Source: a phage. Taken from it: a stretch of DNA of 64,000 nucleotides. The notes under the pieces are model-generated. The model did no database searches. It had not been told where the DNA came from and saw only the letters and a list, made by a program, of their open reading frames with translations. The position numbers and the translations under genes are program-made. The number at the start of each line of letters is the position of its first letter. Position 1 is the stretch's first letter. Positions 3,501 through 58,300 of the stretch are shown here, in pieces. Location of the stretch: the NCBI GenBank assembly GCA_020381345.1, contig GCA_020381345.1_3636.1; one strand, 5' to 3'.

Positions 3501-4404
3501 AGACCTTGATGCCTACGATGGTAGCCGTGAAGGTTTCTATCACCAGGGTTCAAACGCTGACGCACTTGTAATAGATCGCCACTACCCTGCTCCGTACGCT
3601 GGTACACTGCTTGTTTACAAAAACACAGCTAACAGACCTCAAGGTTGTGTGCAGGAATATATCACCTATTTTGGTGACAGATATACTCGTGCTGGTAACT
3701 ACGTTGGCGATGTCTTTACTTGGGAAGAATGGAGACACGATGCTGGTAAGGGCATTCAGTTAAGACCTAATTACACTTTCGGTGAAACCAGTACTCAACT
3801 GGAAATTCATGTCGGTGCTAATGGTCTTCCCTCCAACGCAGATGGCTTACCCAAGGATGATGCTGTACTCCATTATTGGGGTAACGGCAGCACAGGGGAT
3901 CGTCCAAACGTGTTAGAGTTTAAGGTTCGTGACGAGTCTCAAGCAAATTGGGTATGGCATTGCGGTACCTTGCCGGATAAATCAAGATATCTTTCTGTAA
4001 ACGGTGCTGTGAATTGCACATCTGTCAATCAGAGTTCTGACAGAGACCTGAAAGATAACATAGCTGTTATTCCTGATGCGTTAGAAGCTATCCGGAAGAT
4101 GAAGGGTTATACTTACACTCTTAAAGAGAACGGTATGCCTTATGCAGGTGTTATAGCACAAGAAGTGCTTGAAGCGCTGCCGGAAGCAGTTAGCTCTTTC
4201 GTGCAAAGAAAGGAAATCCCAAACCCTGATCAAGATGGAACTCCTTTGATAACAGAGGAAAGATTCTACAGCGTGGATTACGCAGCCGTAACAGGCTTGC
4301 TTGTCCAGGTTTGCAGGGAACAGGACGATAAAATAACCGCCCTTGAGGAGCAGGTTAAAAAATTGACAGAGGTTGTTACTGGGTTGCAAGAGAAACTGAA
4401 GTAA
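592..4404 (+). CDS. tail fibre/tailspike protein with C-terminal intramolecular chaperone (peptidase S74-like) domain
   Basis: RBS AGGAGA 7 nt upstream; 1270 aa; C-terminal ~120 aa (SSDRDLKDNIAVIP...GYTYTLKENGMPYAGVIAQEV...coiled coil) matches the autoproteolytic chaperone domain seen at the C-terminus of endosialidases and L-shaped tail fibres; rho-independent terminator follows. Confidence 0.7.
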   Translation: MADIKVVRIESLPATTAVTEDDYLVVQQPDLTRRVKIGDVVHVDGTVSHVISFKEGGKLNGPMDFAYFEEEDLYLRWKGEFPHTVPALSSPYADGGITDAAWMVYTDPSLREELESTIGASMIMTAEGQSVQDVMDVTVQTANDAKALAQRVDFGTVHTVGDVIHLDNFVGPAVIEEGRTTNYPSVAAGEKFLNGVVSRRDTTTVDGIFRGATSGAMYTISVTNGVATTKRIALRDEFKRLEANNPTRTVIRAGDDLNTAGYLQLDATGRWGMWNQQTASWQPLAIEQGGTGARDAAGVRINIGAFYKQRAALEPNFNINNLTGNQDGVYYQPMTAYATEANGYPAGSGAGHLIVWQNNANGGTGCRQEYYPFSNVDVWYLRTYQANTNQWTAWQPMVRPRNDDTFRAHIGLGPRNTPTFGHIYLSQSSADVKSASGIVNGDKYSADGVLEHGYRIYSEVRNDNKAWLTIHLHKGAKGSETHRYLGFREDGVLDCPKYMQVGDLTGQLTNWGLGEWIRSSGAERGFWGSKKAAKMVVWDGGMDESGNGTLEWGVYNNRKAKWEPLPQAAGGTGATTLADAQNLFKVPVAAGVKDFLTLPRTAGMEDGKYYPIIVRTDPYYASTTGTDITIVTRSSSGNDPMNCATLQCHYRTGGWTDRGDSFQGVINFYQNEKAILGCIAPTRGRQEYVAFYVESRAFPVSVYASRNVLEVFTRENDWQVGNVTNNQDGVKFCAPLASDNLSLAIKGDDVTNTRPLAEFRGTSGFYTGGATGWHYVGTPDRMVLMSKTEMPPVEMWYNGLNYICPGSQTTRKALFSNAGFQAASEGTEDLINNTFTSKCGNGARLQGQAEFRSTPEAGQVIVRDIVGTAHRFYNFNKDGTFSAPGGFVCHTGADWNNQFGPNNPSKIMAGNVNGPEGSMVVGGLSVAFSGNYAFQMAGRLDQLYTRSIEQGNHRAWNKVIQHRGQGLGTEDLDAYDGSREGFYHQGSNADALVIDRHYPAPYAGTLLVYKNTANRPQGCVQEYITYFGDRYTRAGNYVGDVFTWEEWRHDAGKGIQLRPNYTFGETSTQLEIHVGANGLPSNADGLPKDDAVLHYWGNGSTGDRPNVLEFKVRDESQANWVWHCGTLPDKSRYLSVNGAVNCTSVNQSSDRDLKDNIAVIPDALEAIRKMKGYTYTLKENGMPYAGVIAQEVLEALPEAVSSFVQRKEIPNPDQDGTPLITEERFYSVDYAAVTGLLVQVCREQDDKITALEEQVKKLTEVVTGLQEKLK

Positions 4405-4411
4405 CTGTTTT

Positions 4412-4440
4412 GCCCTCGCTTCGGCGGGGGCTTTTTGTTT
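4412..4440 (+). terminator. rho-independent terminator
   Basis: GC hairpin with TTCG loop then CTTTTTGTTT. Confidence 0.6.
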
Positions 4441-4503
4441 GTATTGCGTATTAACTTAAAATCTGGTAAAATAACTATCATGATTGTTTAACCTGGAGGC
4501 ACA

Positions 4504-5094
4504 ATGTTTTTATGGGAAAGGCCTAGATACCTTCCAGATATTAGATTGGAGCTGCTGGCAGATATTGTTACGTTTAAAAGTCCGTTTACAGGTAAAACGC
4601 AAAAAGTAACCTATGCCACACCTAACTGGAAAGGCACTTTGACGGTTTCCAATATCAGCGAGTCACAGTTGCTAGAGCTTAAGAGCTTTGTTGATCAGGT
4701 GTATAAAGATGGAAACATCTTTCTTATTAAAACTTACGGTCACTCAGTTGCAGCTAATGAGCCAATCGCCCTTGGGCCTACTGGTAACGACGATTTTTTG
4801 AAGACTGTTGGGTGGGAGCCAAACAGAGACATAGCCAGAGCTGGGGATAAGATATCTGTCAATGATGAATTGAAAGTGGTAACAGCTCCAGTGCGTAGCG
4901 ATGGTGTTGGGTCTGCTGTTATAAGCATATCTCCAAGACTTAGAAAACCTATTGCCGCAGGGGACACTATGAAGATAATAACTCAATCCCCGAAGGGTAG
5001 GTTTCATATCAGAGATATTTATAAAATTAAGCAAAAAGTCGATGCTATGCAAAAAGGCGATAATATAGTTATCAACTTCTTTGAGGATTTCTAA
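4504..5094 (+). CDS. tail-tip/baseplate assembly protein (hypothetical)
   Basis: GGAGG RBS; position in tail module; overlaps next gene start (translational coupling). Confidence 0.4.
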   Translation: MFLWERPRYLPDIRLELLADIVTFKSPFTGKTQKVTYATPNWKGTLTVSNISESQLLELKSFVDQVYKDGNIFLIKTYGHSVAANEPIALGPTGNDDFLKTVGWEPNRDIARAGDKISVNDELKVVTAPVRSDGVGSAVISISPRLRKPIAAGDTMKIITQSPKGRFHIRDIYKIKQKVDAMQKGDNIVINFFEDF

Positions 5095-5647
5095 GATGAT
5101 CAGAGCGCCATTAGATAATTTATTTCTTGAAAAGCTGGAGCTTGATGGTGTTGAGATCTTAATTGCTGCAAAGCTGGAGCTACCGACAGGAACTGTCAGG
5201 GTGTGCTCAGGCACTGGTGTTATAGTAATTGAGGGGCAACATTTTATAGGGATAGGGGGATCAGCAACATTAACTGCTGTGTCTGAGAAAGATGCCACCA
5301 ACTTCGGATCTGTGGTAGCAACATTGAACGGGTTTGATCCTAAGTATGTGGGTGATCTGCTGAAGACGGAGTATTCTGGTTGTCGTGCCACGTTGTACAT
5401 TACCGCTATGGAGAATGGTCTACCTGTCACAACTAATGGCTTGTTTGACGGCCTTATAACAGATATGGCTATTCAGACAGGTGAGAATAGTGCTTTGTCA
5501 ATATCCATCTCTTCCATCTTCAACAGTTGGTTAAGAGGTTTTCCTTATCGGTACACGGAGGAAAGCCACAGCTCAAGAAACGATAATGACAGATTTTTTA
5601 AATATGTGGATCAGGTGGCGAGCCGCCCGATCATTTGGGAGGTTTAA
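5081..5647 (+). CDS. tail-tip/baseplate protein (hypothetical)
   Basis: 188 aa ORF, coupled to neighbours, Gly/Thr-rich beta-type composition. Confidence 0.4.
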   Translation: MRISKMIRAPLDNLFLEKLELDGVEILIAAKLELPTGTVRVCSGTGVIVIEGQHFIGIGGSATLTAVSEKDATNFGSVVATLNGFDPKYVGDLLKTEYSGCRATLYITAMENGLPVTTNGLFDGLITDMAIQTGENSALSISISSIFNSWLRGFPYRYTEESHSSRNDNDRFFKYVDQVASRPIIWEV

Positions 5648-53023: not shown

Positions 53024-54249
53024 TGAGCGTTATTCAACAATTCGCTAACCCAATGAATCCGCGTGAAACTGTTTTACTAGCTCACGGCATGATTAAACGT
53101 GTTAGCATCAAGCCTATTAAAGGTGCTGATCCTACAACAGGTATTAAAACCACTGTGTGGCAAGGTAAGAAAATTGAATCCAGCCACACCATCTCTTTAC
53201 TGATTTCTGAACTGGATTCCTCTGATAACCTGCTTCAAGGTGGTGAAGAAGTCTGGATCAGCATGGGTGATAAGCTGCTTAAACCAGGTCATCAAGACTC
53301 TGTCTCTGTTAAGATTGATGACAAGTGGGAAACCGTAACGCCAGGATGGATCGTAAATATCCCTTTGAAGGCAAACGAGCATAACGGTAAGACCTATTAC
53401 AAGGGCTCACTGGCTAAGATGGTTAAGCTGGGTGCAGGAGAGGCTCCAGCAGCGACTCAGCAGCAAAAACAGCAACAAGGTGCACAATCACAAGGCCAGA
53501 AGCAGAAACCTCAGCAGAATGCCAATCAGGACGTTTTACGCATCTATGGTGATGTGACTCAGATTGTTGGCAACGTGGTTACTGTTAATGACCACAAGAT
53601 TGGCGAAGGTGCTATGGTTGTAACTGATGAGCAGCTTAAAGACCTGGTGGTAGGTGGTCGTGTTGCAGCCATTGTTGACAAAGACACCGGAAACATTATC
53701 AGTGGTTTCAAGGCCTATCCCCCTAAGGCAGAGAACGGCACTCAAGGATCTGGTGGCAAGCGTAAATCCTCTTACGACCCTATCGGTGTGGAAACGGGGC
53801 ATAGCATCAATGCGTTGCAGATCATCCTGGATCGCGGGTTTAAGGTAGACGACCCACTGGGCGTGGCTAAAACACTGCACGTAGTCACCATTGAGCTTAA
53901 GAAAGAGTATGCTCAAGCCACCAACCGAACTGAAGATGAAGTAGGTGCCAGTGTCGGTAATGCGGTGTTGAACGCTTGTCGCCGTATTGACAAGAAAACG
54001 AAAGTTGATGATTTTGCAGCGGCAATTACTGCAGAAGCAAAAGATGTCTTGACTAATCTGGCTGAACCGTTGTACGATTGGATCAAGAACGGTGCTGGGT
54101 CAACCGACCATCAAGAACCTCAGGCTGCCAAACAGGAAGCAGCTCCACAGCAAAACACTGTAGACGCTCCTCCTGTAAATGATGCGGAAGATGACCCAAT
54201 GGATCAGAATCCAGCACAGTACGCCTTTGATGATGACATCCCTTTTTAA
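53023..54249 (+). CDS. ssb: single-stranded DNA-binding protein with acidic C-terminal tip
   Basis: C-terminus ...AQYAFDDDIPF matches the canonical SSB tail (DDDIPF); Gln/Gly-rich linker; AAGGAGA RBS. Confidence 0.6.
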   Translation: MSVIQQFANPMNPRETVLLAHGMIKRVSIKPIKGADPTTGIKTTVWQGKKIESSHTISLLISELDSSDNLLQGGEEVWISMGDKLLKPGHQDSVSVKIDDKWETVTPGWIVNIPLKANEHNGKTYYKGSLAKMVKLGAGEAPAATQQQKQQQGAQSQGQKQKPQQNANQDVLRIYGDVTQIVGNVVTVNDHKIGEGAMVVTDEQLKDLVVGGRVAAIVDKDTGNIISGFKAYPPKAENGTQGSGGKRKSSYDPIGVETGHSINALQIILDRGFKVDDPLGVAKTLHVVTIELKKEYAQATNRTEDEVGASVGNAVLNACRRIDKKTKVDDFAAAITAEAKDVLTNLAEPLYDWIKNGAGSTDHQEPQAAKQEAAPQQNTVDAPPVNDAEDDPMDQNPAQYAFDDDIPF

Positions 54250-54264
54250 CAATTAGTTAACATA

Positions 54265-54292
54265 GCCCTGCCCGAAAGGGTGGGGCATTTTT
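54265..54292 (+). terminator. rho-independent terminator (repeated element, copy 2)
   Basis: GCCCTGCCCGAAAGGGTGGGGC then ATTTTTG, after SSB gene. Confidence 0.55.
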
Positions 54293-54311
54293 GTATAAGG
54301 AGATCTGAAAA

Positions 54312-54728
54312 ATGACATTAGAAGATATCATTGTTAAACCTGAGAACTATGACCAATACAACCTGTCAACTCAATCTGTAGACCTCGGATGCGCCACAGT
54401 CAGTGCATGGCTGGTTAACGGAAAAGAGCTTGACGAGTGCCTGGAAGCACACATGTCGGTGAATAAATTTCTTGATGAAAATACCCACTGGCTAGAGGGT
54501 GCAGGAGTATATGCTTCATGGTTGGAGAGTATGGGATTCGACTACCAATCTGAAGAGGGGTGGTGGAGCTATTTAGCTATCTGCCCAGAGACGCTGCAAT
54601 GCTTCATGAAATATTCTGAAGATTTGGAGTACCGGGCGGTGGTTGATAGTGCCATTGCCCGTTATAGCCGTAAACCTTTTTCCCACGACATTAAAACTGT
54701 GGAAGAATTTGTTGAAGTTTTCTGTTGA
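54312..54728 (+). CDS. hypothetical protein
   Basis: AAGGAGA RBS; 138 aa. Confidence 0.4.
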   Translation: MTLEDIIVKPENYDQYNLSTQSVDLGCATVSAWLVNGKELDECLEAHMSVNKFLDENTHWLEGAGVYASWLESMGFDYQSEEGWWSYLAICPETLQCFMKYSEDLEYRAVVDSAIARYSRKPFSHDIKTVEEFVEVFC

Positions 54729-54824
54729 CACAGGTTGAAAGGTGTGCAATTATAACTTCATATAACGGGAGGACGCGATGAACGAAGAAAACTGGGATGT
54801 ATAACTAACAGGAGGCCACTGCCC

Positions 54825-55022
54825 ATGATTTATCGAATCCGTGTAAGAGAAGATGCACCAGGCTGTTACTTTGACTGGCGTGGGTGGTGGTTTCTCCACC
54901 CAATGGATGGACTCACAGATAGAATGCTGGATGCTGCCCTTTACACAGATACCGACATAGAATATAATCTCTATCTGAAGGACGGTATAGATAACGGCCT
55001 GTTTGAAGCAATTCCTGTGTAA
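54825..55022 (+). CDS. hypothetical protein
   Basis: AGGAGG RBS; preceded by an 8-codon mini-ORF with its own RBS. Confidence 0.35.
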   Translation: MIYRIRVREDAPGCYFDWRGWWFLHPMDGLTDRMLDAALYTDTDIEYNLYLKDGIDNGLFEAIPV

Positions 55023-55090
55023 GAGACTGTGATAACTATGTTTTATGATCTTCCTGTAGCGCCACCACCTGTTGAACCCGGAGAACTAAG

Positions 55091-55516
55091 ATGATCTATG
55101 AAATGCCAAAACTGATTCGTGACGATGCCCAAAACGCTCACACCATTATTATGGGCAAACGCATGGATATTATTTGTCATAAAGATTTCTGGGAAGGAAG
55201 TTACTTCACAGAGTATTTTGGTAAACTGGACAATGGTCTGCTGATCCAGTTCTACACCGATGCGGAAAACAATATCTGCTGGGAGTTCGAAACTGAAGAT
55301 ATCCATAAACTTTTCACCTTCCTCGGTATTAAGGTTGAGGCCAAGTTTGAAGAAGGTGAGTGCGACGATTGTGGATTCTACGAGGTAACAGATTTCTACC
55401 TCCCGAGCGGTGAGAACCTTTACTATGAAAGCCACTTCGGTAACTCCAATATGCCACAGTGCTGGACTGAGTTTTTTGAAATTGCGGAAGAGGAGCTGGC
55501 ATACCGTGATTATTGA
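55091..55516 (+). CDS. hypothetical protein
   Basis: GGAGA RBS; 141 aa. Confidence 0.4.
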   Translation: MIYEMPKLIRDDAQNAHTIIMGKRMDIICHKDFWEGSYFTEYFGKLDNGLLIQFYTDAENNICWEFETEDIHKLFTFLGIKVEAKFEEGECDDCGFYEVTDFYLPSGENLYYESHFGNSNMPQCWTEFFEIAEEELAYRDY

Positions 55517-55964
55517 TACTGTAGGGGGAGATCTAATCTCTCTTTTCAAGAAAGGGTCGGGCCACATGATCCACGGTTGTAACTGCTTTCACACAATGGG
55601 TGCAGGCATAGCGAAAGACATTGCCCGTGAGTTCCCTCAAGCACTGGCAGCCGACAAAGAGACTGCTTATGGTAATCTAGACAAGCTGGGTATGTTTTCT
55701 TGTTGGGAGCATTTTGCCAAGAACAGGGTCGTATATGGAATCAACCTGTATACCCAGTTCTACCCAGGGCCCAATGCTGAATACTTCTCAATCATGAAAG
55801 GTTTTGAGCGAGTCAACGAGGTATTCAAAGGTGTGTCATTGCCGTTCTACATTCCTAAAATCGGATGCGGTATTGGCGGTCTAAAGTGGGAACATGTAGA
55901 AGATGTAATTAATCTTGCAACCACAGATATTGATGTGGTTGTAGTAGAGTACAAAAAGTGTTGA
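55506..55964 (+). CDS. macro domain (ADP-ribose binding/hydrolase-like) protein
   Basis: VIIDTVGGDLIS...HMIHGCNCFHTMGAGIAKDI...IPKIGCGIGG resemble macro-domain N-terminal strand, Gly-rich loop and C-terminal loop; GTG start overlapping upstream stop proposed (an upstream in-frame ATG at 55410 would overlap the previous gene extensively). Confidence 0.5.
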   Translation: MIIDTVGGDLISLFKKGSGHMIHGCNCFHTMGAGIAKDIAREFPQALAADKETAYGNLDKLGMFSCWEHFAKNRVVYGINLYTQFYPGPNAEYFSIMKGFERVNEVFKGVSLPFYIPKIGCGIGGLKWEHVEDVINLATTDIDVVVVEYKKC

Positions 55965-56018
55965 CGACCATCTTCTGAGGTGATATAGTCTCCACAACAA
56001 CTAAGAGAGGAGAGCACT

Positions 56019-56189
56019 GTGGAGACTAAAATCTTAATTCTTGCTGTGGTAGATACAACCGAAGGAGCTATATTCGAATCTGCAGGAGGGTATTTCTACC
56101 TACCATACGGAAAAAGAACTTCCGAGCCAAGTAAAGATTCAATCCGCAAAGTGTTCCCGTGTGCTTTCTGGCTGGAGATTTTGGTATAA
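56019..56189 (+). CDS. small hypothetical protein (56 aa, below track threshold)
   Basis: GTG start 7 nt after GAGGAG. Confidence 0.25.
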   Translation: METKILILAVVDTTEGAIFESAGGYFYLPYGKRTSEPSKDSIRKVFPCAFWLEILV

Positions 56190-56215
56190 GATTGCAGAGG
56201 ATTTGGGAGAGAATT

Positions 56216-56410
56216 ATGAGAAACAAGAAAGAGCTTTACTCTGGTGAGTGGATCAACGATCAACAGGTGGGAGAGGTAACCTGCTTCCGATGTTTTACCA
56301 GGTACAATCTTAAAACTGCACCAAAAAGTGTTCCAAAGACTGATGGTTATTACATAAAAGAACCTTATTGCCCAAAATGTAAATGCCGATTATACTGGAG
56401 TAACCTGTAA
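56216..56410 (+). CDS. small zinc-ribbon protein
   Basis: GGGAGAG RBS; CFRC ... CPKCKC. Confidence 0.4.
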   Translation: MRNKKELYSGEWINDQQVGEVTCFRCFTRYNLKTAPKSVPKTDGYYIKEPYCPKCKCRLYWSNL

Positions 56411-56473
56411 AAGATTGACATCTGAAAACTGCAGTGTATAATATATGCATAAACTAACAGAGAGTGATGTATT

Positions 56474-56665
56474 ATGGTAATTTTTAACCGGGATGGTATC
56501 ATAGTTAGACAGCACCCGTTCCTTGAATACTATCAAATTGAGCAATGGTGCTACGGGGATTGCAGTCACTCCTATGGGCAAAGTTGGGGATATCGTACAG
56601 TTTTTGAATCCACAGACCTTGACAAAGTAAGACAGAAAGTTTTAGAACTTATTAACAACAAGTGA
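56474..56665 (+). CDS. hypothetical protein
   Basis: 63 aa ORF. Confidence 0.35.
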   Translation: MVIFNRDGIIVRQHPFLEYYQIEQWCYGDCSHSYGQSWGYRTVFESTDLDKVRQKVLELINNK

Positions 56666-56672
56666 GTATGAT

Positions 56673-57005
56673 ATGGTAACATTAGAAAGACGTAAAGCTA
56701 TCGCCGCCACACTGGCAGACATCTTTTGGGAGTGCAATTTAAAAGATACTAGATATTGTGGCGCATCTGTAGATGCATTGTTCCCACGGCCTACTATTGT
56801 TGCAATGGGCAACCTGCTCGATGTGGTATATGGAGCATGGGACAAGGAAGGTGGATTCTATATCTGGCAACCTGACTACGGGACTTGGAAAGAGGTTAGT
56901 GGTTCTTCGGACTTCACTCCTGCAGTGGCTAAAATGGATGGCTGGAAAATCTATGTCGGTAACGACATGGAACTGAAAGGCGAAATTGTTTACTGGTTAC
57001 CTTAA
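56673..57005 (+). CDS. hypothetical protein
   Basis: 110 aa ORF. Confidence 0.4.
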   Translation: MVTLERRKAIAATLADIFWECNLKDTRYCGASVDALFPRPTIVAMGNLLDVVYGAWDKEGGFYIWQPDYGTWKEVSGSSDFTPAVAKMDGWKIYVGNDMELKGEIVYWLP

Positions 57006-57026
57006 GAAAGTCCAGGAGATAAAGTT

Positions 57027-57272
57027 ATGAACAAAGGGTGGACATTTGTAGACGGCGTTAAAAACATGCCTCTAGGAAAGTATATTGTAGCCATGGCAGA
57101 TGAGAATGGCAATGTGGATTTCGGAGCTTGCGAGGTTGTTCTTGCAGGATCTGGTAACTATGTGGACAAAACCGGGATAATTAACGGTCAGTTCTACTTT
57201 GATCACAACCCTGTTGTAGCGTATATGGCTATGCCAGAGTTCAAGTTCCCAAAGGAGGGTGCAGATGTTTAA
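57027..57272 (+). CDS. hypothetical protein
   Basis: CAGGAGA RBS. Confidence 0.4.
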   Translation: MNKGWTFVDGVKNMPLGKYIVAMADENGNVDFGACEVVLAGSGNYVDKTGIINGQFYFDHNPVVAYMAMPEFKFPKEGADV

Positions 57273-57462
57273 GCTTAAATCTGCATGGAACATCGCTGTG
57301 GGGGACGAGATCCGTATCCCAGGTGGAAAGACCATTATGAAGATATCTCGTATCGAGTACGAAGGTGATCGTGTATTTCATATCTTTGCAGAGGATGGTC
57401 GAGAAATTTATATACAGGCAGGCTCTCACATCTATATTCGTAAGAAAGGGGACGACAAATGA
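57259..57462 (+). CDS. hypothetical protein
   Basis: AAGGAGGG RBS. Confidence 0.35.
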   Translation: MQMFKLKSAWNIAVGDEIRIPGGKTIMKISRIEYEGDRVFHIFAEDGREIYIQAGSHIYIRKKGDDK

Positions 57463-57788
57463 CAGAGATCATCATTTCAACTGCAGGGTATGTGTTCCTG
57501 ACAATCATTGCACTGACCATTCTGGTGGTGGTATATGGAATTGTTATTCTCCCTATTCTTGAGACAATTAGTTTGTGTCGGTGTTGGAGAAAGGCTTACG
57601 GTCCACAGCCGTGGAAGGACTGGCCCCACCTGGTGCACATAGCGTTCTCTTATGCTTATGATCACGCCAGCAGTGCATGCATAACCGGGTATCACGCCCA
57701 CAACTGGAGCTGGGAAGGGTTGAGGAAATGGAATGTTACAAAGACCATACCTCTGCGCATGTACAAACCTAAAAACAAAGACAGCTGA
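57459..57788 (+). CDS. membrane protein (N-terminal transmembrane helix)
   Basis: AAAGGGGA RBS; hydrophobic N-terminus IIISTAGYVFLTIIALTILVVVYGIVILPIL. Confidence 0.4.
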   Translation: MTEIIISTAGYVFLTIIALTILVVVYGIVILPILETISLCRCWRKAYGPQPWKDWPHLVHIAFSYAYDHASSACITGYHAHNWSWEGLRKWNVTKTIPLRMYKPKNKDS

Positions 57789-57819
57789 TACTTGAAAATT
57801 CCTGGCATATCAAGTATAA

Positions 57820-58300
57820 GGGGGATTTCTAAAATGGATTTCCTCCTTTTGATATTTCACCGGGCCGGATATTTTAAAATTCTTAGAAAATCAGAAAATG
57901 GATCGAAAACTAAAATGGATTTTTCAGAGTAGGCGCGACAAGCTGAATAACTCATCCTATCGTTTGCACCATATTCCAGGCCACCATTATAGATTTCCCA
58001 CACATGCTAACCTCTCTCTACTAGAACTTCCTCCACTTACCCTTGACCTTCTATGGTAACAATCTAACCGCTATCTTGAAGTTGCGGTGCAGCTTTCCAG
58101 GTACTCGATCTACTTTTCATTTCAGGGCTTGGATTTTCTGAAAATTTTTCTCGATAAATTTCTCAGTACTCGATCTGTTTTTCGTTTTCTGAATCGGATT
58201 TTCTGGAAATCGTTCCGGCTCTCAACCTGAAATTTTTGGGGACGAAATCGATTTTTCGTTTTCAGAAATGGATTTTTAAAATTTCTATATGGGAATATTT
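57820..58300. repeat. AT-rich non-coding region with recurring AAAATGGATTT / GGATTTTCTG / ATCGAAAAC motifs
   Basis: No credible ORF; motif recurs at ~57833, 57896, 57913, 58131, 58196, 58270. Confidence 0.5.
58098..58210. repeat. imperfect ~48-bp direct repeat, two copies, ~66-bp period
   Basis: CAGGTACTCGATCTACTTTTCATTTCAGGGCTTGGATTTTCTGAAAAT vs CAGTACTCGATCTGTTTTTCGTTTTCTGAATCGGATTTTCTGGAAAT. Confidence 0.55.

Follow-up and report, generated by a model that had tools for sequence, protein, structure and literature searches.

The 64,000-nucleotide stretch of phage DNA analysed here (contig GCA_020381345.1_3636.1 of NCBI GenBank assembly GCA_020381345.1; below, the window) encodes on its plus strand, at positions 55506..55964, a stand-alone macrodomain protein of 152 amino acids. 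Positions 54000-58000 are 100% identical to Escherichia phage PDX (MG963916.1), a 138-kb Vequintavirus (rV5-like myovirus), and more than 110 further Vequintavirus genomes match them at 90-99% identity; we refer to the product as the PDX protein. By its sequence it is a macrodomain of the ALC1/TARG1-like class and represents, in Vequintavirus, the phage Tk.4 family (T4 AdfM, PHROG_335). By analogy with characterized relatives, we consider it fairly probable that the protein is an orphan antitoxin-like glycohydrolase that would reverse the ADP-ribosylation of phage DNA by DarT2, using the glutamine-dependent mechanism of the SCO6735 type.

Assignment to the macro family follows from both profile searches and structure prediction. 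In a hidden Markov model (HMM) search the protein matched Pfam Macro (PF01661) at 25.9 bits (E=1e-5), above the gathering cut-off of 22, and a precomputed PF01661 match accompanies 59 of the listed homologues. PHROG_335 was matched over residues 1-151 (E=1.2e-59). Together with tblastn matches in 2741 phage records, these scores put the assignment well above chance. Two DarG models were also matched, at E=1.5e-12 for PADLOC (model positions 9-143 of 329, the macro part only) and at E=1.2e-11 for NCBIfam (44.5 bits against a cut-off of 250; positions 8-144 of a 338-position model). The predicted structure has the three-layer alpha/beta/alpha macro fold, with a predicted local distance difference test (pLDDT) score of 96 for the model. 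An earlier sequence-only reading had proposed a phage macro-domain protein at 55506-55964 from three motifs. These coordinates delimit exactly one coding sequence, and all three motifs are present as written: VIIDTVGGDLIS (residues 1-12, 55506-55541), HGCNCFHTMGAGIAKDI (residues 23-39, 55572-55622) and IPKIGCGIGG (residues 116-125, 55851-55880). The macro-domain call agrees with the Pfam match, with PHROG_335 and with the alignment of the glycine-rich loops, and the claim that the motifs are such loops holds for the two Gly-rich ones, whose columns coincide throughout with those of the equivalent loops in TARG1 (MGAGIA and IGCGL), DarG, SCO6735 and BT1257. The role guessed in that reading, reversal of a defence of the host based on ADP-ribosylation, is supported by analogy, as the T4 homologue Tk.4 is needed against DarTG2.

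The active-site residues were analysed by counting conservation among 86 aligned homologues and by establishing column correspondence through HMM alignments to Mycobacterium tuberculosis DarG, TARG1, SCO6735, BT1257, Escherichia coli DarG2 and PhiKZ gp104. Thirteen residues, G24, N26, M31, G34, A36, D50, N80, Y82, T83, Q84, P117, G120 and G122, are invariant in 86/86 homologues; H23 and G125 are each present in 85/86, and position 33 is Ala in 80/86. Loop 1 with the active-site motif H23-G-C-N26-C-F-H-T30-M-G-A-G-I-A36 (55572..55613, plus strand) was delineated from conservation and alignments to PDB chains, the roles of its residues being taken from published work (PMC9411070; PMC13309987; PMC12846349). 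Its N26 occupies the column of DarG N22 and SCO6735 N27, with the VNC motif of DarG aligned at this position, and H23 the column of SCO6735 H24 and Poa1p H23. Loop 2, I116-P-K-I-G-C-G-I-G-G125 (55851..55880, plus strand), was recognized as the diphosphate-binding loop by alignment to TARG1 (IGCGLDRL) and DarG. Within these loops the segments M31-G-A-G34 and I119-G-C-G122-x-G-G125, aligned with the loops of TARG1, DarG and SCO6735, are invariant or nearly so. Asp50 (55653..55655, plus strand), conserved in all 86 homologues, is replaced by Tyr in DarG and BT1257 and by Trp in SCO6735.

The most informative position lies in the motif N80-L-Y82-T83-Q84 (55743..55757, plus strand). The column of Gln84 contains the catalytic lysine of M. 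tuberculosis DarG (Lys80, FPTKK) and TARG1 (Lys84, LITKK) and a lysine in E. coli DarG2 (FPTKD) and PhiKZ gp104 (Lys78, FPTKD), but glutamine in SCO6735 (Gln85) and BT1257 (NMIGQH), which are the best PDB sequence matches of the protein. In human TARG1/OARD1 (PDB 4J5S) the catalytic dyad is Lys84-Asp125 (PMC9411070), and its second member falls in the column of Gly124. As the lysine is replaced by Gln84 and Asp125 of TARG1 by Gly124, the lysine chemistry of DarG and TARG1 cannot apply. In turn, H23, G24, N26 and Q84 map onto H24, V25, N27 and Q85 of SCO6735, so that the SCO6735-type combination of Gln in the Lys column (Q84), loop-1 Asn (N26) and preceding His (H23) is present. On this residue pattern the macrodomain is probably catalytically competent.

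The alternative that the protein does not catalyze but binds, as an ADP-ribose reader or sponge or as a direct block of DarT2 by protein-protein contact, has to be mentioned here, since the canonical catalytic Lys is absent and since inhibition of DarT in vitro persists in the inactive variants SCO6735 Q85A, DarG K80A and TARG1 K84A (PMC9411070). However, the SCO6735-type catalytic residues (H, N, Q and the Gly loops) are conserved across the 86 homologues and the gene is under purifying selection, while the C-terminal DarT-binding domain of DarG is absent. Because the catalytic constellation is invariant, we regard a purely binding function as very improbable.

The functional evidence comes mainly from the T4 member of the family. 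In BLASTP the alignment of the PDX protein with T4 Tk.4 spans both proteins completely (39% identity, E=1e-43), and Tk.4 scored 166 bits against a profile of the homologues of the PDX protein that was built without it. Both proteins consist of a single stand-alone domain (155 amino acids in T4, 152 in PDX), fall in PHROG_335 under the label "phosphatase" and have in common all residues invariant in the family, including HGCNCFHTMG, NLYTQ and the P-x-IG-x-GIG loop; the signature H23, G24, N26, D50, N80-x-Y-T-Q84, P117, G120 and G122 is complete in each. As Tk.4 contains the same NLYTQ motif, the PDX protein should have the same chemistry as T4 AdfM, whatever it is. The two differ, however, at 61% of residues, belong to different phage groups (Straboviridae and Vequintavirinae) and occupy different neighbourhoods: T4 tk.4 lies between vs and tk, whereas the PDX gene follows the DNA polymerase and single-stranded DNA-binding (SSB)-like protein genes.

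Earlier work had shown that some anti-DarTG2 factor, then unidentified, had to be present in T4. In a HIDEN-SEQ preprint of November 2025, only tk.4 stood out significantly on a DarTG2 host, through lowered read counts of insertions, and its clean knockout sensitised T4 to DarTG2; the gene was named adfM (anti-DarT factor macrodomain) from its structural similarity to M. tuberculosis DarG (10.1101/2025.11.20.689424). On E. coli K-12 tk.4 is non-essential, insertions being found at 45/46 TA sites. Its positional orthologue in the Vequintavirus Bas54, bas54_0092, which matches the PDX gene in length and in its 11-nt overlap with the upstream gene, likewise tolerated insertions at 31/31 TA sites on K-12. 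This tolerance, along with the absence of ADP-ribosyltransferase domains from the immediate neighbours, indicates an accessory gene and supports a role in counter-defence, as does the fact that E. coli strains carry DarT2-DarG2 loci.

From these data and from the biochemistry of other macrodomains we infer the following sequence of events for the PDX protein. Lying in the replication-gene arm of the phage, the gene would be switched on early by promoters of the host type. The two Gly-rich loops of the product would bind the ADP-ribose moiety, and the enzyme would hydrolyze the N-glycosidic bond that joins the distal ribose to thymine N3, which host DarT2 makes on single-stranded DNA (ssDNA) at replication forks. 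Held by Asn26, Gln84 may orient both the distal ribose and the transition state, with a backbone-bound water molecule possibly taking part. Free ADP-ribose would be released and a replicable template restored, the protein thus acting as a phage-borne orphan "antitoxin" against defence of the DarTG2 type. The precedent for this chemistry is SCO6735, which efficiently removes from ssDNA the thymidine-linked ADP-ribose made by DarT and protects cells against that toxin; its activity is abolished by Q85A and Q85E and nearly abolished by N27S, and the proton donor has been proposed to be a water molecule bound to the backbone at residue 25 (PMC9411070). A precedent for the role is PhiKZ gp104, a phage-encoded macrodomain that removes DarT2-made ADP-ribose from a TNTC oligonucleotide in vitro and neutralises DarT2 (PMC13309987).

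Several observations weigh against this assignment. Within the Tk.4 family the DarTG2 phenotype is known from T4 only, where the evidence is genetic and comes from a preprint, and we found no published biochemistry on any Tk.4-type protein; moreover, the PDX protein shares no more than 39% identity with Tk.4. It lacks the Lys on which DarG and TARG1 depend. Lys34 of SCO6735, which contacts DNA, is replaced by Ala33, and the longer mobile loop of that enzyme is lacking; because of these absences, the substrate can be transferred from SCO6735 by analogy only. Residues H23, N26 and T30 also fit the catalytic set of yeast Poa1p, an enzyme acting on small ADP-ribose derivatives. Early expression is argued from consensus promoter matches only. 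The DarTG2 allele used in phage studies was detected in 10/5426 complete E. coli genomes, compared with 116/120 Vequintavirus records and 2741 phage records for the macrodomain gene. Finally, no darT was found next to the cellular homologues, the Pelagimonas chromosomal copy and the copy on a 648-kb contig both being orphans, an observation that is uninformative on a tie to DarT. A physicochemical proxy for DNA binding, the isoelectric point (pI), was tried and rejected: the family median is 6.4 and the PDX protein has 6.2, but this does not discriminate, because the DNA-active PhiKZ gp104 has a pI of 5.05.

Comparison with known systems shows where the protein stands. Its best sequence matches in the PDB, SCO6735 of Streptomyces coelicolor (PDB 5E3B) and BT1257 of Bacteroides (2FG1/2AFC), are only about 21-24% identical to it and are encoded by cellular rather than phage genes. 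In both, the mobile loop after the Gln is 5-6 residues longer than in the PDX family; furthermore, Lys34 and Lys89, through which SCO6735 contacts DNA, are absent from the PDX protein (Ala33 at the former), and Val25 of SCO6735 corresponds to the Gly24 invariant in the PDX family. DarG (M. tuberculosis, 5M3I; Thermus aquaticus, 5M31/5M3E; E. coli DarG2) differs in its catalytic Lys80, aligned with Gln84, although its active-site Asn22 is kept as Asn26. DarG proteins have about 320-340 amino acids, including the C-terminal DarT-binding domain, and are encoded next to darT, as in the E. coli darT-darG pair, while the 152-residue PDX protein lacks this domain and only small proteins of unknown function are encoded next to its gene. 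The PDX protein is not a DarG, having neither the catalytic Lys nor a DarT-binding domain nor darT next to its gene.

PhiKZ gp104, the chimallivirus "AdfM", which received this name independently, resembles the PDX protein in being a phage-encoded stand-alone macrodomain. However, the two are 22% identical over 127 amino acids (pairwise E=1e-4), gp104 scores 40 bits against the family profile, and it keeps the DarG-type Lys (FPTK78D); it is also imported into the phage nucleus (PMC13309987). A BLASTP comparison of T4 Tk.4 itself with gp104 aligned 23 residues (E=0.005), with Gln facing Lys in the catalytic column. Given the 22% identity between gp104 and the PDX protein and this 23-residue alignment, the two "AdfM" proteins belong to different clades.

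Yeast Poa1p (PDB 6LFQ), an ADP-ribose-1''-phosphate phosphatase, suggests another substrate class. By this analogy the PDX protein could hydrolyze small soluble ADP-ribose derivatives, detoxifying a molecule or quenching a signal and possibly feeding NAD+ salvage. Candidate substrates are ADP-ribose-1''-phosphate (from NAD+ phosphorylase toxins of the RES/MbcT type or from RNA 2'-phosphotransferase of the Tpt1 type), O-acetyl-ADP-ribose and an ADP-ribose-based immune signal. The old annotation of the family as a phosphatase with an A1pp motif (PHROG_335; the T4 record) agrees with such a function, as does the match of H23, N26 and T30 to His23, Asn26 and Ser30 of Poa1p. The same residue argument has been made for a Pakpunavirus homologue near the NARP1 (NAD+-reconstitution) genes (PMC12846349), and Iyer et al. 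see soluble ADP-ribose derivatives as the main targets of phage macrodomains. The gene is also far more widespread than the counted DarTG2 allele. However, the fit to the Poa1p set (His23/Asn26/Ser30/Gly33) is partial: H23 and N26 are identical, but both also belong to the SCO6735 set, Thr30 stands for Ser, and Gly33 is Ala33. Poa1p is a protein of 177 amino acids with long insertions and about 22% identity, acting on small molecules in the context of eukaryotic tRNA splicing, and by profile score E. coli DarG2 (73.6 bits) is closer to the family than Poa1p is (49.6 bits). No Tpt1, NARP1 or RES-related gene is annotated among the neighbours or in positions 1-59 kb of the record of JLBYU08, a relative, no experiment ties a Tk.4-type protein to a small-molecule substrate, and the one phenotype known in the family, that of T4, is DarTG2-specific. 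We consider this function unlikely.

A second alternative concerns polymers other than DNA. The protein could be a broad eraser of ADP-ribose from RNA (uracil-, phosphate- or 2'-OH-linked) or from protein (Glu/Asp), instead of or besides DNA, and so counter other ADP-ribosyltransferases of the host. SCO6735 itself hydrolyzes Glu/Asp-linked ADP-ribose on protein (PMC9411070) as well as uracil-linked ADP-ribose on RNA, enzymes of the TARG1 class act on multiple substrates, and the very wide distribution of the gene among phages, when the DarTG2 allele that was counted is so rare, would be consistent with such breadth. On the other hand, no anti-phage system that ADP-ribosylates RNA uracil or protein Glu is known in E. 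coli, the adenine modification of the CmdT type is described as irreversible, macrodomains like that of DarG are reported to be DNA-specific, and there are no supporting phenotypes. This function also appears unlikely, slightly more so than hydrolysis of small molecules.

The difference in prevalence bears on both alternatives. The ten E. coli genomes with the DarTG2 allele were found at the DNA level, always at at least 99% identity, starting from the published primer and locus; as such a search misses divergent DarT2 families, the count is a lower bound and the gap is only suggestive. Still, it may point to selection that is broader or of another kind, and with the allele rare and the macrodomain gene nearly universal in Vequintavirus, both a small-molecule substrate and an RNA or protein substrate stay alive as explanations. 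With the Tk.4 clade found in about 5% of sequenced phage genomes and the counted allele in about 0.2% of E. coli genomes, a wider function can be drawn: the Tk.4-type clade, marked by Gln84, Asp50 and His23, might be mechanistically distinct, with DarT2-modified DNA as one of several substrates (DNA, RNA and small molecules, from several host systems, some of them undescribed), and T4 Tk.4 and PhiKZ gp104 might be independent recruitments from different macrodomain lineages. We consider this reading rather unlikely. The DarT2-DarG2 pair of the published phage studies lies in the chromosome of E. coli O22:H8 RM10809-3 (3622-5179 of the stretch examined), directly after P2-like prophage genes (a replication endonuclease and a DinI-like protein) and before an IS5/IS1182-family transposase remnant, an arrangement that fits defence cargo carried by a prophage.

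The macrodomain gene does code for protein and evolves under purifying selection, its dN/dS (the ratio of nonsynonymous to synonymous substitution rates) being 0.11 against two Vequintavirus alleles. It starts with GTG, ends with TGA and contains no internal stop codon. A Shine-Dalgarno-like sequence, GAGGAG (55491..55496, plus strand), can be read 10 nt before the GTG, and its position within the 3' end of the upstream gene (55091-55516) suggests translational coupling between the two genes, which overlap by 11 nt, as they do in JLBYU08, Bas51 and Bas54. The mechanically called open reading frame (ORF) begins earlier, at GTG 55410, but this longer version overlaps the conserved upstream gene, and the homologues begin at the position of 55506; it was therefore rejected. 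A later ATG start, at Met21, was rejected too, as it would remove the first strand, which is conserved and confidently modelled. The homologues have 151-155 amino acids and align from residue 1, T4 Tk.4 beginning with MIVKYIKGDIV and the Krischvirus copy with MIIDTVKGDLI from an ATG at the same position, and strand beta-1 (residues 2-8) has a pLDDT of about 97 in the predicted structure. The Shine-Dalgarno-like sequence 10 nt upstream, the end of the upstream gene at 55516, the N-termini of the homologues and the confidence of beta-1 together identify 55506 as the real start. In the PDX record only 10 features are annotated and the macrodomain gene is not among them; in close relatives it is labelled "hypothetical protein", "phosphatase" or "putative macro domain-containing protein".

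The family is abundant in phages. With tblastn, matches were found in 2741/50,697 phage records, mostly of large myoviruses of Enterobacteria, Pseudomonas, Vibrio, Acinetobacter and Aeromonas; in T-even phages the match adjoins vs and is the T4 gene tk.4, and among Vequintavirus records the gene is kept in 116 of the 120 matched. Krischvirus UPWr_E1 (PP418985.1), a phage of the Straboviridae, has a 68%-identical copy in the exact tk.4 slot, between regB/vs and tk (positions 2501-2956 of the stretch examined), where the order is regB, two ORFs, the macrodomain gene, three small ORFs and tk. This copy ties the Vequintavirus version to the T-even ones and suggests, from sequence comparison, lateral exchange between unrelated families of E. 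coli myoviruses. Within Vequintavirus, tblastn identities formed two groups, with 44 records at 95-100% and 62 at 80-90%; therefore, these phages hold two alleles of the gene, presumably swapped by recombination. In the comparison with phage vB_EcoM_12A_SA_NWU (55567-56064), identity was 68-86% across the macrodomain gene and 88-99% in the flanks, and the gene, with a synonymous substitution rate (dS) of 1.1, forms a local island of divergence. No second macrodomain was found in the six-frame translation of the window, so the gene is single-copy there. Another family member, of 174 amino acids, was found in the 648-kb ENA metagenome contig_31011 (positions 5001-5525 of the stretch examined), surrounded by many small unannotated ORFs and several genes for ankyrin-repeat proteins; this contig may belong to a giant virus or a very large phage.

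The neighbourhood of the gene consists of ten ORFs, all of which match PHROGs of unknown function. The upstream gene (55091..55516, plus strand) encodes a protein of 141 amino acids from PHROG_8157 (E=6e-82; no Pfam match); its stop overlaps the start of the macrodomain gene, and it is absent from the tk.4 neighbourhoods of T4 and Krischvirus. Two genes downstream of the macrodomain gene, a 64-aa protein (56216-56410, plus strand) matches the "Phage zinc binding domain" (PF23903, E=7e-22), the sole Pfam match among the ten neighbours. No gene for an ADP-ribosyltransferase, a NADAR or Nudix protein or NAD salvage was found in the ten ORFs, and none is annotated in positions 1-59 kb of the JLBYU08 record.

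Before the two-gene unit of 55091-55516 and 55506-55964 lies a sigma-70-like sequence, TTTACA-17-TATAAT (54940..54968, plus strand; 11/12 consensus positions), which is a candidate early promoter, and a terminator-like hairpin (54265-54286) follows the gene preceding the unit. Further downstream, the consensus scan revealed a sigma-70-type site at 55961-55989 (10/12) and a perfect sigma-70 promoter, TTGACA-16-TATAAT, at 56415-56442 (plus strand; 12/12) before a 63-aa gene at 56474. In total the scan gave 19 sites in 6 kb, compared with 12.0 +/- 3.6 in shuffled sequences, with near-consensus sites before other small genes. This layout resembles a group of early genes that each have a promoter of their own, and we infer early expression of the macrodomain gene in the sense that these sites are compatible with its transcription by host RNA polymerase early in infection. 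The interval of about 54250-54310, between the gene for a 408-aa SSB-like protein and the gene at 54312, has no insert in PDX; Bas51 WalterGehring, Bas54, navn, SophiaRose and 12A_SA_NWU carry at this site a homing endonuclease / endonuclease VII gene of about 0.6 kb, and matches to insert-bearing genomes are broken in two and cover 4.6 kb rather than 4.0 kb.

The family described here is already abundant and annotated in sister genomes, and its T4 member has a published function. Three small points found here go beyond the literature consulted: the Gln for Lys in the T4-type AdfM clade, the invariant Asp50 specific to the family, and the use of the name AdfM for two remote lineages. The first and the last are blurred in current literature, as the T4-type AdfM has the Gln of SCO6735 rather than the Lys of DarG and is only a remote relative of its PhiKZ namesake. 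The overall picture is unchanged, since phage macrodomains are by now established as a counter-defence against ADP-ribosylating toxins. A function can nevertheless be proposed for a gene that is unannotated in PDX and "hypothetical" in most Vequintavirus genomes. As Vequintaviruses are candidates for therapy against pathogenic E. coli, knowing which defences they disarm would help in predicting their host range.

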